Below, in pieces: positions 40,136 to 46,966 of a stretch of DNA of 64,000 nucleotides. This DNA is from Escherichia phage Eryne. Under the pieces are notes generated by a model, which saw nothing but the letters and a program-made list of their open reading frames with translations, had not been told where the DNA came from and made no database searches. Where the stretch lies: sequence record PQ529420; one strand, 5' to 3'. The translations under genes and the position numbers were made by a program. Every line of letters begins with the position of its first letter. Within the stretch, counting starts at the first letter, position 1.

Positions 40136-40258
40136 TTACCCCCAATGTATATGGGAAATTAACCAAAAGATAAATTCCCAAAAACACCAACCAAGAAAAG
40201 TTAATGGAATTATAAAGGCTATCAGAGCAGTCTTCCAGCCTTTCCACAATGTTTCCAC
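40136..40258 (-). CDS. small membrane peptide (40 aa, GTG start)
   Basis: GGAGGA RBS 5 nt upstream of GTG; hydrophobic ...ALIAFIIPLTFLGWCFWEFIFWLI. Confidence 0.25.
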   Translation of the reverse strand: METLWKGWKTALIAFIIPLTFLGWCFWEFIFWLISHIHWG

Positions 40259-41247
40259 TATTCCTCCATACATTTAAGAATATGTGCAATGACAGGTATA
40301 GTCCAACCGTTACCTAACATCTTATATGCTTGTGTGTTACTACTCACTTTAAAGTAGTCATCTGGCACACCTTGCAAACGGCAACACTCTTTAACGGTTA
40401 ACTTTCTATAATGTACGCCTTCACTCAATTTTTCAAAAGCATCTAAATATCTTCCAGGTGGAATGTAAGCTAATAGTACGTCTTTCGGCACAGTCGTGAG
40501 GCAACGAGTTTTTTCACTGTCCTGAACTTCCAAACAATGTACCAAACGATCAGTTTTAGATGTACTACGTTTGCCATTTTCATTAATTCTACGCCCATAT
40601 ATTGCTGCCGGATAAAAAACCAGTTGTCTGCGACTCTTTTCAAAATACTGTTCTATATTACCACCTTTGGCATAATTTGCATCTATGCAATAAGCCTTAT
40701 CTCTGTCTACAATACTATCATCTTCAATGATATCTTGCAACACTTCATTGGTAATATCCCAAGGTTTTATTTCCCAGTTGCACCAGTATAAACGTTGTCT
40801 ATTCTGTGCCGTGAAATCTGCGGAGTTAATGAATACGGGATCAACACCTAAGTAACTTGTGATCACGTTTTCCCACTCCACTTTCATCTTAACGTTTTCA
40901 AGCATGAACTTAACATTAGGGTTAAACTTTTTAATATGTTCAAGAATCTCGACATATTCGAAGAATAGCTTAGATCGCGGATCTTGAAAATTCAAACCTT
41001 TACCAGAAGAAGAGAAGCCTTGACACGGACTACCACCTAACAAAAGATCAATTTCTCCCCACGGGATATCCCATTCTCTCCATTTTGTAACATCACCTAA
41101 CTGAATAATATCTGGAAAATTTGCTTGGCTTTCAGCTACGGCAAATTTGTCTAATTCTGAAGCGTAATATGTATCTACTTCAATACCTGCACTTTTTAGC
41201 GCAAGCATTCCTCCTGACATACCATCAAAAAGACTTAAAACTTTCAT
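40258..41247 (-). CDS. DNA (cytosine-5)-methyltransferase
   Basis: LFDGMSGG (motif I), GGSPCQGFS (motif IV), ENVK (motif VI). Confidence 0.8.
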   Translation of the reverse strand: MKVLSLFDGMSGGMLALKSAGIEVDTYYASELDKFAVAESQANFPDIIQLGDVTKWREWDIPWGEIDLLLGGSPCQGFSSSGKGLNFQDPRSKLFFEYVEILEHIKKFNPNVKFMLENVKMKVEWENVITSYLGVDPVFINSADFTAQNRQRLYWCNWEIKPWDITNEVLQDIIEDDSIVDRDKAYCIDANYAKGGNIEQYFEKSRRQLVFYPAAIYGRRINENGKRSTSKTDRLVHCLEVQDSEKTRCLTTVPKDVLLAYIPPGRYLDAFEKLSEGVHYRKLTVKECCRLQGVPDDYFKVSSNTQAYKMLGNGWTIPVIAHILKCMEE

Positions 41248-41249
41248 TA

Positions 41250-41660
41250 TTACTTCTTCTCCTTAACACTAGCTGGTAATTCTGCCTTGAGGCAGAAGTT
41301 TAAACGGTAAGCCTCATTCTCATTTAAAAGTACAGATTCACACGATAACCAGAACAAGAGATCCTCAATACCAGGGCTGTTAAGCCAACAGTGCAGAAGA
41401 GAATGTTGTTCTATATCAATGTAATTTAGTAACAAGGCTTGTAAGGCATAACTAGTTCCTGTCGTTTTTGCTTTTTCAAGGATGATATTGTGTTTACTAA
41501 CAACTTTCTTCCTAAGACCAAACCATTTATTAACAACAACAGTCTCCTCTTGTAGTTGTTTTCTTATTTTCTCACATTCTTTAACTACAATCTGCATCTT
41601 ATCCACTGCTGATTGAAGTTGTTCTTTTGTTGGGTTTACAAAATAGTCACTATAGTACAT
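41250..41660 (-). CDS. hypothetical protein
   Basis: ORF track. Confidence 0.5.
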   Translation of the reverse strand: MYYSDYFVNPTKEQLQSAVDKMQIVVKECEKIRKQLQEETVVVNKWFGLRKKVVSKHNIILEKAKTTGTSYALQALLLNYIDIEQHSLLHCWLNSPGIEDLLFWLSCESVLLNENEAYRLNFCLKAELPASVKEKK

Positions 41661-41715
41661 GCTAATCTTCTCCTCTTCTGTTTTTCTGTAGTTTATTTGA
41701 AAAAACTGGTCTTGT

Positions 41716-41745
41716 CAACAAAAAACCCGCCGAAGCGGGTTTATA
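41716..41745 (-). terminator. rho-independent terminator (minus strand)
   Basis: aacccgccgaagcgggtt with A-run on plus strand. Confidence 0.6.
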
Positions 41746-42003
41746 TTATTCTACAGGAACTTCTTCACCAAGAGAAACTTCTAAACGGAATGCTTTACTT
41801 TCAATACACTCACTACCTTTTAGAAAATCAAATTGCACTATAGACTGACTTAATAGAATAGATAGAATTACATCGCAATCTTCACTAGGAGCTAGATGTT
41901 TGTATTCTTCCTTCAAGGTAACATCATAAAAACATAAATCCCCTACTCCTAGTTCATCCCATCCTTCCCACGCATCTACAAAGTTAAACTCTAAACCTTT
42001 CAT
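41746..42003 (-). CDS. hypothetical protein
   Basis: ORF track. Confidence 0.45.
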   Translation of the reverse strand: MKGLEFNFVDAWEGWDELGVGDLCFYDVTLKEEYKHLAPSEDCDVILSILLSQSIVQFDFLKGSECIESKAFRLEVSLGEEVPVE

Positions 42004-45076: not shown

Positions 45077-45280
45077 TTAACTAGCAACCGTAACTTCCGA
45101 ACTTTCTTCTTTCGTACTGTCTACGATATGCCTGGTGGCAATATACGAGACTTGCCAGTTACCATCTGGTGTAGTCTCAATAAGTACCCTATCTACTTCG
45201 AGAAAATGCAAAAATTCAACCATCGCTCGCTTCGATAGGAATTGTTTTTTAACAGTCTCCTCAAAAGATTGAACTGCCAT
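45077..45280 (-). CDS. hypothetical protein
   Basis: ORF track. Confidence 0.45.
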   Translation of the reverse strand: MAVQSFEETVKKQFLSKRAMVEFLHFLEVDRVLIETTPDGNWQVSYIATRHIVDSTKEESSEVTVAS

Positions 45281-45289
45281 GTTTCCTCC

Positions 45290-45952
45290 TTATTTAATAT
45301 TCAATTTTGCACAAAGACGTTGTACCGCTTTGGCATCGAACAAACTCCCACGAATAGTTCTCTTTCCTGATTCATTCAGATGTTTTGCAATCGTCATATA
45401 TGGCGTTTTACAAGCTCTGTATGCAACTAAAGAATCTTTTAAAGAAAGCGCAAACTCTTTTGAGCGTTTTGCTTCTTCCGTTTTCGTATAATCTGTTCTT
45501 TTGTATTTAGGGTTTGCTGCACCAAGAAGCGTTCCCTTCGCTTTTGCTACTTTAAGGCTCTTCTTAACACGATCAGATATTGCACGAGCCTCTTCTTCTG
45601 CCAGAACTGCTAAAATATTTATTATCATATTTTCAGCGGAGGGCATAGTTGCTATTCGTACATTAATCATCTCTAACAAGGTTGCAACAGAAGCTGTGTT
45701 ACGTCCAAGACGGTCAACCTTAGCAACAACAAGTGTAGCACCTGTTTCTTTGCAAAGATTAACAGCTTTTACAAGCTCTCTACGTTGCTTCCAATCGCCT
45801 TTACCCGAATAAAACTCTGCAAAGCTACCTACAATAGTATAATTTTCTTGTGAATCCAGGAAGCGTTGGATATCTGCTTCCTGTGATTCTATACCATACT
45901 GGTTGCCTTGTTGTTTCTTCTTAGAAAGTCGATGATACAGTACAAACTTCAT
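45290..45952 (-). CDS. serine recombinase (resolvase/invertase family)
   Basis: N-terminal YHRLSKKKQ (catalytic Ser context) and VDRLGRN motif; C-terminal HTH-like tail. Confidence 0.7.
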   Translation of the reverse strand: MKFVLYHRLSKKKQQGNQYGIESQEADIQRFLDSQENYTIVGSFAEFYSGKGDWKQRRELVKAVNLCKETGATLVVAKVDRLGRNTASVATLLEMINVRIATMPSAENMIINILAVLAEEEARAISDRVKKSLKVAKAKGTLLGAANPKYKRTDYTKTEEAKRSKEFALSLKDSLVAYRACKTPYMTIAKHLNESGKRTIRGSLFDAKAVQRLCAKLNIK

Positions 45953-46009
45953 AATACCCTCCTGTTCTGTTACAGGAAGTATGCACTACCTTAACGTTAA
46001 AGTCAACAG

Positions 46010-46225
46010 TTAAGTAGTGGTAATATCATCTTCTTGAATATCAGGATCAACTTCTGCAAAGATAGCTTCTACAGGAATTTCTTCACCTGCTATTCTAGAA
46101 AGAAGCACTGAACCAATAGCTTTTGCGTGTTCTTCGGATTCCGCATAAACATTAGTCCCTGTGTCTTTTTTCTTAGTTTCGTTAAAATATACCAGATAGT
46201 AATTGTATGCCATTATTCTTCCCAA
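46010..46225 (-). CDS. hypothetical protein
   Basis: ORF track. Confidence 0.4.
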   Translation of the reverse strand: MGRIMAYNYYLVYFNETKKKDTGTNVYAESEEHAKAIGSVLLSRIAGEEIPVEAIFAEVDPDIQEDDITTT

Positions 46226-46464
46226 TCGTTGTTACGAGCATTTTCAAGAACCTTGACAACTTCTGCATACTCTACAGCTAAACCAGCACACACTTCAGCT
46301 TGTTTTGCAATTGCTTGTTTAAAGAACATAGCGATTGCAACACTCTGTGTTGTGTGAATGTTATCTGCTTTAGTTGATACGTGAAGATCAAAATCTTCTT
46401 CATCAAAGGTGAGTTCCATAGTAACAATAAATTTCTCGGTCATAAAAATGCTCCTCTTAAACAA
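46213..46464 (-). CDS. hypothetical protein
   Basis: ORF track. Confidence 0.45.
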   Translation of the reverse strand: MFKRSIFMTEKFIVTMELTFDEEDFDLHVSTKADNIHTTQSVAIAMFFKQAIAKQAEVCAGLAVEYAEVVKVLENARNNDWEE

Positions 46465-46966
46465 AATAGAAAGGTTGAGTTAAACCCAGCCTGTTTTTTG
46501 GGTCGTAGACGTACCAAGCATATGCTGTCTTATCAGTACCACCTGCAACAAAAGATGGTCGTTCAGAAAGAACAATCAAATTTGTTGGTGGATTCTGTTT
46601 ATGGAATTCCCTTCGTTTAATAGACTCTAGGAAACCAAGACGCAACAAGTATATGCAAACGTCTGCTTCTTTTAAGCTCTTTTGCAAGAACTCAAGTGCA
46701 AGTTTGAATGGGGGATTTGTGATTATAATATCCGGCTTAGTATGCCATTCATGGTTAAAATAATCTTTCCCTTCTTCTAACTCACAATATTCTGATCCTT
46801 CTGGAAAATGTTGATAAATTGCAGCAGCAGCGCCTTTACACGGTTCTGCAAAAATAAAACCTTCTTCTTTAAGGTTATTAAAATCTATTACACTAAATAA
46901 TGCATTTATACATTTTTGTGGAGTAGGATAGTAATCAGTTGGTGGACGATCATACTTATTTGCCAC
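46457..46966 (-). CDS. small DNA N6-adenine (or N4-cytosine) methyltransferase-like protein
   Basis: PDIIITNPPF (motif IV, NPPF) and N-terminal DYYPTP. Confidence 0.5.
   Translation of the reverse strand: MANKYDRPPTDYYPTPQKCINALFSVIDFNNLKEEGFIFAEPCKGAAAAIYQHFPEGSEYCELEEGKDYFNHEWHTKPDIIITNPPFKLALEFLQKSLKEADVCIYLLRLGFLESIKRREFHKQNPPTNLIVLSERPSFVAGGTDKTAYAWYVYDPKNRLGLTQPFYFV

Follow-up and report, generated by a model that had tools for sequence, protein, structure and literature searches.

Why does a lytic phage carry two DNA methyltransferase genes with no recognizable restriction enzyme beside them? The question is raised by a 64,000-nucleotide stretch of Escherichia phage Eryne (PQ529420; hereafter the window), which derives from a phi92-like lytic E. 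coli myophage of the genus Justusliebigvirus: the region is matched by 61 phage records at 95% identity or more, and more than 50 phi92-like phages share it at 98-99% identity. EmilieFrey, a near-identical phage (98.8% identity), provides a curated record. Phages of this genus are components of therapy cocktails and of the BASEL reference collection. A sequence-only reading of the window had proposed two orphan enzymes lying some 5 kb apart and acting in anti-restriction self-methylation. Both ORFs are intact, on the minus strand and exactly where that reading had placed them, separated by a measured 5.2 kb (Table 1). They sit among nucleotide-metabolism and replication genes on the leftward strand, and their proteins are 99% conserved across more than 50 isolates.

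The genes themselves are not new. Public phi92-like records already carry them as 'Dcm-like C5 cytosine methyltransferase' and 'putative N6 adenine methyltransferase', and the BME3 paper already called both of them orphan anti-restriction enzymes. Because both genes have been annotated and discussed publicly, the finding as first stated is an ordinary one and adds nothing to labels present in dozens of records. Its modest value lies in three other points: the targets of both enzymes matter in a genus used for therapy cocktails and the BASEL collection, the conserved methyltransferase genes are at odds with the high restriction sensitivity seen experimentally, and no curated model exists for the very large family of minimal methyltransferases to which the small enzyme belongs.

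Table 1. Features of the two methyltransferase loci, in window coordinates
Feature	Coordinates	Strand	Remarks
Terminator-like hairpin, end of the C5-gene unit	39486..39506	-	consensus scan only
203-aa ORF downstream of the C5 gene; flanks the methyltransferase slot and is conserved	39523..40134	-	no assigned function
C5-cytosine DNA methyltransferase, 329 aa	40258..41247	-	predicted DNMT3-like catalytic core and beta-rich target-recognition region, about residues 160-270
136-aa ORF, directly upstream of the C5 gene, apparently in the same transcription unit	41250..41660	-	no assigned function
Terminator-like hairpin, then sigma-70-like promoter match (TTGACA-17-TAAACT), upstream of the C5 unit	41690..41742	-	consensus scan only
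Stand-alone amino-methyltransferase, 169 aa, NPPF, without target-recognition domain	46457..46966	-	probable DNA N6-adenine methyltransferase
142-aa ORF, 11-nt overlap of its stop with the start of the small methyltransferase	46956..47384	-	from the ORF list; phrog_15078 (function not known)
Promoter-like match (TTGACA-17-TAAAGT with TG) and terminator-like hairpin, upstream of the small-methyltransferase unit	47401..47470	-	consensus scan only

The larger gene encodes what its sequence identifies as a complete C5-cytosine DNA methyltransferase with all catalytic motifs. PF00145 covers residues 1-327 (E 2.1e-43, 149.4 bits against a cutoff of 22), TIGR00675 scores 142.2 bits against a cutoff of 100.65, and the motifs follow one another in the expected order: I (FDGMSG at 7), IV (PCQ at 74), VI (ENV at 117), VIII (QNRQR at 148) and X (GNG at 312). 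In the established mechanism of C5 methyltransferases, a cysteine attacks and a glutamate protonates the target base; here, the flipped-out cytosine would be attacked at C6 by Cys75 of PCQ and protonated at N3 by Glu117 of ENV, with the choice of target probably set by the variable region at about residues 160-270.

This enzyme had been described as canonical and Dcm-like. The C5 assignment, with its PCQ and ENV motifs, holds; the Dcm label does not. Tried as a candidate, the E. coli Dcm subfamily was rejected, as NF007772, with a cutoff of 710 bits, reaches only 30 and aligns with residues 280-328 only. Two Dcm orthologs in the PDB, 3lx6 and 3me5, likewise align at residues 273-328 only, and HMM and PDB-sequence searches detected no similarity of the target-recognition region to Dcm or any solved enzyme. 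E. coli Dcm and M.EcoRII, which recognize CCWGG, share superfamily and chemistry with the phage protein, but Dcm is 472 aa long against 329 aa, and only the C-terminal motifs IX-X can be aligned. The best match among PDB sequences is instead DNMT3 (E 1.6e-23, residues 2-159), and with the AF2 model (pLDDT 82, loop 183-208 being its low-confidence part) the best Foldseek matches are DNMT3A/B/C (E 6e-20), M.HaeIII being found at E 7.5e-17. By sequence and predicted fold, then, the enzyme is DNMT3-like and stands outside the Dcm subfamily. DNMT3A/3B/3C share with it the motif I context SLFDG and a TM score of 0.72-0.77 on the target; they have a short loop where the phage enzyme carries an extra beta-rich stretch of about 110 aa (residues 160-270), and their regulatory domains are absent from the phage enzyme, for which the resemblance does not imply a CpG target. 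Our guess would be a site of the pyrimidine-5mC kind, for example CCWGG. At 99% identity, the protein matches both P0298 and phi92 gp043; the latter, together with the other Justusliebigvirus orthologs (98-100% identity, same genomic position), is the same gene; EmilieFrey bas61_0190 shows no difference of substance, and its 'Dcm-like' label is unsupported at the subfamily level.

The smaller gene starts with GTG, preceded by GAGGAG, and encodes the 169-aa protein previously described as methyltransferase-like on account of its NPPF motif. That description is borne out by NPPF at 84-87 (motif IV), a match to phrog_799 'DNA methyltransferase' (E 7.8e-57) and a predicted structure with a class-I methyltransferase fold (pLDDT 90.6). 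The SAM-binding motifs, whose absence was to count against the assignment, are present as DYYPTP at 11 (motif X), EPCKG at 41 (motif I) and E62 (acidic motif II), so that the assignment stands; RPSF follows at 136. Among 40 diverse relatives, N84, P85 and P86 are invariant, and the same alignment shows the second glycine of motif I replaced by alanine in the phi92/phAPEC8 clade. With motif IV, the SAM-binding motifs X, I and acidic II and a class-I Rossmann-like fold, the protein is, as far as sequence and model can tell, a minimal SAM-dependent amino-methyltransferase. It is mildly acidic (pI 5.8). The catalytic fold takes up all 169 aa, leaving no target-recognition domain, and the genomic contexts of relatives show no conserved neighbouring partner that would be a candidate specificity subunit. 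In this it differs from the gamma-class N6-adenine DNA enzymes (M.TaqI, MmeI, M.BseCI, CamA, HsdM), which either carry a large target-recognition domain or rely on a specificity subunit.

Searches against Pfam and NCBIfam returned no match for this protein, including the curated DNA methyltransferase families N6_Mtase, N6_N4_Mtase, MethyltransfD12, Eco57I and Dam. The HMM of PF05869, the HP1-type phage Dam family of about 170 aa, is also without a match, and relatives reach 20 bits against a gathering score of 28.1. Profile-profile comparison by hhalign nevertheless links the two families over 158 colinear columns (87% probability, E 3.9e-6), which suggests a remote full-length relationship as sister families rather than membership. 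Members of PF05869 such as Haemophilus phage HP1 orf13 (173 aa) are of the same size, equally devoid of a target-recognition domain, and share the architecture D-x-aromatic-x-TP, then NPP[YF], then an R-x-x-F loop; the classical motif I (EPCxG) is kept in the 169-aa family and missing from the HP1-type family in the alignment. A Dam methyltransferase has been reported for HP1, according to a reference cited in PMC7556043.

The 169-aa protein occurs in 500 phage records, among them all of the rV5/phAPEC8/phi92 group, of which it is a core gene (98.8% identity in EmilieFrey, 85-87% in phAPEC8, 47% in rV5-like phages). Length and synteny are the same in EmilieFrey bas61_0203, phAPEC8 gp177 and the rV5-group orthologs (phrog_799), and the phi92-like orthologs do not differ from the window gene. 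A dN/dS of 0.07 indicates strong purifying selection. The wider family comprises about 7,000 clusters (50% identity, E 1e-10 or better) and is missing from both Pfam and NCBIfam; a search of the literature brought up no biochemical work on its members. Its distant members lie almost throughout in phage-like contexts, with no nuclease partner. DNA is the probable substrate, the most likely product being N6-methyladenine in a short motif; a GATC-like site would be our guess for the target.

Treating the two genes as a functional pair does not survive comparison across phages. The rV5/phAPEC8/phi92 group keeps both methyltransferase slots, and the C5 gene is genus-specific within its slot: in phAPEC8 the flanks are conserved and the slot is filled by a different, unrelated methyltransferase gene. 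Outside the genus, the closest relatives of the C5 protein are scattered over unrelated phages. Because their phyletic distributions differ and they apparently belong to different transcription units, the two genes do not form a pair.

What do they protect against? In published plating assays EmilieFrey forms no plaques on EcoRI, EcoRV and EcoP1 hosts and loses about 10-fold on EcoKI, and the BASEL text agrees on the restriction sensitivity of this phage group. Full restriction by EcoRI, EcoRV and EcoP1 means that any protection must be limited to specific sites, and the anti-restriction role proposed from the sequence, a generic inference, keeps its place only in this narrow form. One whole phi92-like genome lacks 22 of the 64 hexamer palindromes, and contains AAGCTT 0 times against 43 expected and GGWCC once against 47. 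No avoidance is seen for CCWGG (192 against 200 expected), GATC (ratio 1.02) or GCGC (1.02), and the window follows the same pattern. We propose that the purging of GC-rich palindromes is the main anti-restriction device of this phage. The non-avoidance of CCWGG and GATC could equally come from host Dcm/Dam methylation or from a lack of selection. A related Certrevirus has both kinds of methyltransferase gene, and Dam-type methylation was suggested by its ClaI pattern; for phi92-like phages the literature search found neither a methylome nor an enzyme assay.

On balance we favor, as the probable explanation, two independent stand-alone SAM-dependent methyltransferases that give narrow, site-specific anti-restriction protection alongside palindrome purging as the main device. 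The two enzymes would fully methylate replicating phage DNA at a few specific sites, and this methylation would shield it from the cognate restriction enzymes independently of host Dam and Dcm. We infer both activity in vivo and the protective role.

The conservation of both slots in a very restriction-sensitive phage group is a hint that these genes may serve mainly some purpose other than anti-restriction. The methyltransferases could serve chiefly non-defensive functions in the phage cycle: a packaging or replication-timing mark, avoidance of MutH nicking of hemimethylated DNA, gene regulation, or telling phage from host DNA for phage nucleases. The strong constraint on the small gene, the exceptional sensitivity of these phages in the laboratory despite their methyltransferases and the location of the genes among those for replication and nucleotide metabolism would all fit. 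Direct evidence for such a role in this phage is lacking, however, and the swapping of the C5 gene in a conserved slot, together with the scatter of its relatives, is more typical of arms-race cargo. We regard this as a minority prospect, though one to be taken seriously.

A further doubt concerns the small enzyme. Because these phages are fully sensitive to restriction enzymes that adenine methylation would block, it may not be an anti-restriction factor, acting instead on RNA or placing a DNA mark for a phage-internal purpose; we consider this rather improbable. In its specific form, the protein would be an RNA m6A methyltransferase of host or phage rRNA, tRNA or mRNA and not a DNA enzyme. 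The predicted fold matches N6-adenine methyltransferases and is equally close to the rRNA m6A enzymes METTL5, PH1948 and ErmC', and METTL5/PH1948-type enzymes resemble the protein in fold, size and catalytic motif. METTL5 needs TRMT112 as a partner. A size of about 170-200 aa and a missing target-recognition domain recall METTL5/PH1948 and Erm/KsgA, no curated DNA methyltransferase family matches, and a broad DNA adenine methyltransferase is ruled out by the continued restriction by EcoRI, EcoRV and EcoP1. Several comparisons nonetheless return DNA enzymes: besides the full-length profile link to PF05869, the PADLOC match is MTase_II, a type II DNA methyltransferase model, and the sub-threshold Pfam matches of relatives, centred on NPPF, are Dam, Eco57I and EcoRI methylase (one relative also matches the generic Methyltransf_11 weakly at the motif-I region). 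The PDB profile search is led by DpnA, a DNA enzyme, in its two best matches, though the rRNA methyltransferases 1yub, METTL5 (E 0.45) and RsmC follow among the weak ones. With a family found almost wholly in phage contexts as well, action on RNA seems unlikely to us, and a protein glutamine methyltransferase less likely.

Could one of the enzymes, rather than being a stand-alone protective methyltransferase, belong as the modifying partner to a cryptic restriction-modification or toxin-like module whose nuclease is hidden in the adjacent 136-, 203-, 142- or 83-aa ORF? Restriction endonucleases are notoriously difficult to recognize from sequence, and both genes are flanked by tightly packed small ORFs with no assigned function. 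Pfam and PADLOC models of nucleases and restriction enzymes found no match among the ORFs neighbouring either gene, and the EmilieFrey curated record contains no restriction enzyme annotation from 65.7 to 146.7 kb; the claim that no restriction endonuclease is recognizable is upheld. The upstream ORF of the C5 gene (no Pfam or PADLOC match) is an ortholog of phAPEC8 gp193 (25% identity, E 3e-13), and the downstream one (phrog_8514, function not known; no Pfam or PADLOC match) is 68% identical to phAPEC8 gp195. These flanks are thus kept beside a different methyltransferase, the opposite of a co-evolving restriction-modification pair. Around distant relatives of the small enzyme the neighbouring genes are unrelated, and the 142-aa ORF is unlikely to be an obligate partner because it is not conserved beside these relatives. 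A type II restriction-modification system was accordingly rejected, as no cognate endonuclease gene adjoins a methyltransferase whose flanks persist while it is swapped. A motif scan of all window ORFs of at least 80 aa gave no further [DNS]PP[YFWH] ORF and no further convincing C5-methyltransferase ORF. Both methyltransferases can be called orphans, since neither has a detectable restriction partner, and a hidden module is very hard to credit.

That one or both genes are inactive relics, as the lack of measurable protection against the restriction systems tested on these phages and the alanine in motif I of the small enzyme might suggest, is scarcely plausible given intact catalytic motifs throughout, near-complete protein conservation among the isolates, the low dN/dS of the small gene and confident fold models for both proteins.

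The two genes that the sequence-only reading had called DNA methyltransferases are borne out as such by domain models and motifs. The larger encodes a C5-cytosine methyltransferase (the C5 enzyme) that matches Pfam PF00145 along its whole length (E 2.1e-43), exceeds the model cutoff of TIGR00675 and carries motifs I (FDGMSG), IV (PCQ), VI (ENV), VIII (QNRQR) and X (GNG). Its description as Dcm-like did not survive: Dcm orthologs align only across its last 55 residues, the NCBIfam Dcm subfamily model gives 30 bits against a cutoff of 710, and the closest solved proteins by sequence are the catalytic domains of DNMT3A/3B (E 1.6e-23), with M.HhaI and M.HaeIII slightly behind. 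Its AlphaFold2 model (pLDDT 82) is confident in the catalytic parts, has a beta-rich region at residues 210-270 and is of low confidence in loops 74-82 and 183-208. In Foldseek searches with this model, DNMT3A/B/C rank first (E 6e-20, TM 0.72-0.77 on the target) and M.HaeIII comes at about rank 43. Because the Dcm model falls below its cutoff and DNMT3 is best by both sequence and fold, "Dcm-like" is a misnomer at the subfamily level. The target-recognition region matched no solved structure in sequence or fold searches, and we dropped solved structures as a guide to the target since the alignment reaches the catalytic core alone, not this region.

The smaller gene, with a GTG start preceded by GAGGAG, encodes a probable N6-adenine methyltransferase (the small enzyme) that has no match in Pfam or NCBIfam and matches phrog_799, "DNA methyltransferase" (E 7.8e-57). 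Alignment of 40 diverse relatives confirmed the SAM-binding motif on which its assignment had been made to depend, the conserved positions being those characteristic of amino-methyltransferases: D11-x-Y13-x-T15-P16 (motif X), F39-x-E41-P42-C43-x-G45 (motif I), E62 (motif II), D68-Y69 and I81-x-T83-N84-P85-P86-F87 (motif IV), together with a conserved R136-P137-x-F139 loop. The AlphaFold2 model, built with the family alignment as input, is confident (pLDDT 90.6, pTM 0.87), and the catalytic fold takes up all 169 aa, so that no separate target-recognition domain is present. As a direct query against PDB sequences the protein returned nothing, and a profile search gave weak matches only, around NPPF. 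Against 1.84 billion representatives the profile retrieved 6,985 clusters with an E of 1e-10 or below; almost all are stand-alone proteins of 160-220 aa. Longer relatives scanned for extra domains, including one 560-aa fusion, gave only sub-threshold methyltransferase matches, to the DNA adenine methyltransferase families Dam (PF05869), Eco57I and EcoRI methylase and one to the generic Methyltransf_11. Some relatives carry a four-cysteine insertion of about 30 aa (CxxY...CxCGG) directly after the RPxF loop (family alignment columns about 185-222, e.g., P0061, P0087, P0094, P0106), which is absent from the window protein and may be a zinc ribbon acting as a DNA-reading element.

Haemophilus phage HP1 encodes a 173-aa protein, orf13, that matches PF05869 (E 7e-75) and is the sole methyltransferase annotated in that genome. 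We aligned the relatives of orf13 and set the resulting profile against the small-enzyme family profile with hhalign, obtaining 87% probability, E 3.9e-6 and 158 colinear columns in which DxWxTP, NPPY and RIPF of the HP1-type family pair with DxYxTP, NPPF and RPSF. HP1 reportedly encodes a Dam methyltransferase (a reference cited in PMC7556043), and from the single annotation we infer that orf13 is this gene. The HP1-type family thus offers a precedent for sequence-specific DNA adenine methyltransferases of about 170 aa without a target-recognition domain. Judged by sequence, the small enzyme appears to be a sister of the PF05869 phage Dam family, not a member of it.

Cutting by EcoRI, EcoRV and EcoP1 is blocked by adenine methylation inside the site. 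In the raw plating data of the BASEL study, the near-identical phage EmilieFrey gave 2.7e7 pfu on the vector control, 3e6 with EcoKI and none with EcoRI, EcoRV or EcoP1. The small enzyme therefore does not methylate DNA adenines broadly and without specificity, and whatever protection exists must be limited to particular sites. Hia5 and Hin1523, which are non-specific adenine methyltransferases, were rejected as a functional model given this restriction by the three enzymes, and as relatives given their Dam-like type, their length of 281 aa and their DPPY motif.

Self-methylation against restriction is a generic reading already in the literature, and both genes, their labels and this proposed role are public: the BME3 paper states that the genus carries orphan methyltransferases protecting against host endonucleases, and the Certrevirus CB7 paper, which notes both kinds of gene, describes a ClaI pattern that Dam-type methylation could account for. 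Experiments set bounds to this reading. In the BASEL study, Vequintavirinae and phi92-like phages proved "exceptionally susceptible" to RM systems, apparently without effective protection. It is plausible that the methyltransferases serve mainly a non-defensive role, in packaging, replication, mismatch-repair avoidance or regulation; in its favor, both slots are conserved although the phage group is very restriction-sensitive. Less probably, the small enzyme might act on RNA, a substrate compatible with the fold data. In the literature searched, no methylome was found for phi92-like phages or phages related to them, and methylation goes unmentioned in the rV5 paper.

That either gene has a cryptic restriction partner is unlikely, and we rejected this candidate: the neighbors of both genes have no nuclease or defense model match, and the flanks of the C5 gene are conserved while the methyltransferase is swapped. 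The reading that no restriction endonuclease is recognizable agrees with this and with the curated EmilieFrey record, in which no restriction enzyme is annotated across 65.7-146.7 kb. Distant small-enzyme members lie in phage-like genomic contexts among unrelated neighbors, with no nuclease, conserved partner or specificity subunit beside them. A motif scan of every window ORF of at least 80 aa gave no further methyltransferase candidates. The two genes lie 5.2 kb apart, close to the 5 kb first estimated, and predicted terminators and promoters seemingly place them in separate units. Together with their different distributions, this makes them two independent features, not a pair. The interpretation as orphan self-methylation functions is partly supported, methyltransferase identity and orphan status standing while the Dcm label and the pairing do not.

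At 95% identity or more, the C5 gene occurs only in Justusliebigvirus; its next relatives, at about 51%, are in one Vibrio siphophage and Rak2-like jumbo phages, and more than 8,000 metagenomic relatives vary in length. In the related phage phAPEC8, the flanks are orthologous (68% identity downstream; 25%, E 3e-13, upstream), whereas the slot holds gp194 (L013:6118-6801), a Pfam-negative C5-like protein of 227 aa that has the motifs FDGSG, PPC and ENP and is just 26% identical to the C5 enzyme over the first 128 residues. The C5 gene thus sits at a conserved position whose methyltransferase has been replaced, which looks like cassette exchange. Gp194 is possibly a minimal or atypical C5 enzyme; its record mentions likeness to rV5 and PVP-SE1 proteins. 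The small gene is present in 500 phage records, with identities of 98-99% in phi92-like, 87% in phAPEC8-like and 45-50% in rV5-like, Certrevirus and PVP-SE1-like phages, and remoter copies in KVP40-like vibriophages and cyanophages. Purifying selection on this gene is strong (dN/dS 0.07 against phAPEC8 gp177), and it is unlikely that one or both methyltransferase genes are dead. In Klebsiella phage KP12 (OM835951.1, 129118-129441), a homolog aligns to residues 62-168 only and the matched stretch carries the annotation of an HNH homing endonuclease, which suggests that the gene was interrupted or truncated by the homing endonuclease.

Site purging, extreme for short GC-rich palindromes, is another strategy used by the genome. 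A complete phi92-like genome (146 kb) wholly lacks 22 of the 64 hexamer palindromes, against 5 of 64 in an rV5-like genome. Observed and expected counts are 0 and 43 for AAGCTT, 0 and 33 for CTGCAG, 0 and 21 for GGTACC, 0 and 19 for GGATCC, 1 and 47 for GGWCC, and 0 and 15 for GGTNACC. The window repeats this pattern (AAGCTT 0 against 20.9 expected; GGWCC 0; CCWGG 106). AT-rich GAATTC (28 observed, 33 expected) and GATATC (55 and 53) show no avoidance, in line with the plating data. The purge spares the GC-rich short palindromes CCWGG (192 and 200), GCWGC and GCGC as well as GATC (ratio 1.02), a weak lead to targets, phage and host methylation being inseparable in k-mer statistics. McrBC of E. 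coli K-12 cuts purine-5mC DNA. Since K-12 MG1655 was the isolation host of many of these phages, our guess is that the C5 enzyme would make a pyrimidine-5mC site; the foremost candidate is CCWGG, inseparable by sequence from host Dcm effects. The small enzyme might target GATC or a similarly short motif, again a guess that sequence does not separate from host Dam effects.

Features of the methyltransferase region
Feature	Position	Strand	Basis
Sir2-family protein	38114-38926	-
Terminator-like hairpin	39506-39486	-	consensus scan, pattern matching only
Perfect sigma-70 consensus match	39522-39551	-	TTGACA-18-TATAAT + extended TG
C5 enzyme, 329 aa	40258-41247	-
Terminator-plus-promoter pair upstream of C5-gene unit	41742-41690	-	consensus scan, pattern matching only
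DprA-like	42505-43200	-	phrog_768
Serine recombinase, 220 aa	45290-45952	-	Resolvase N-terminal domain E 8e-22; phrog "DNA invertase"
Small enzyme, 169 aa	46457-46966	-
Terminator-plus-promoter pair upstream of small-gene unit	47470-47401	-	consensus scan, pattern matching only
HslV/proteasome-like N-terminal-threonine peptidase	47426-48079	-
dTDP-rhamnose pathway, four genes (RmlA/B/C/D-like), downstream of endolysin	about 50000-54000		synteny with EmilieFrey 116-119.3 kb (L008:3029-6290)

Region 40000-47400, all of whose genes lie on the minus strand, matches more than 50 complete phi92-like E. coli myophage genomes over its full length at 98-99% identity; these belong to Justusliebigvirus (subfamily Stephanstirmvirinae) and include phi92 and the BASEL phages EmilieFrey and PaulScherrer. 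Both methyltransferases are part of a long leftward block with Sir2-like, DprA-like, NinI-like phosphatase, serine recombinase, HslV-like peptidase, PhoH, endolysin, dTDP-rhamnose, ribonucleotide reductase and thymidylate synthase genes. The Sir2-family, HslV-like and DprA-like genes are all kept in phAPEC8, and beyond the window EmilieFrey has genes for NAMPT and PRPP synthetase (NAD salvage). The serine recombinase, flanked at a distance by one methyltransferase gene on either side, occurs in a strictly lytic phage; the matching phAPEC8 position has no annotated ortholog. The sigma-70 match lies directly upstream of the hairpin and of the next ORF (38938-39483). In the BASEL paper the rhamnose genes are putative dTDP glycosylation machinery, yet without restriction protection. 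Several records titled "UNVERIFIED: Campylobacter phage" (MG065639.1, MG065656.1, MG065672.1 and others; L014-L019), which state Campylobacter jejuni as host and chicken as source, match phi92-like or rV5-like phages of E. coli at 98-99% identity and are probably misattributed coliphages.
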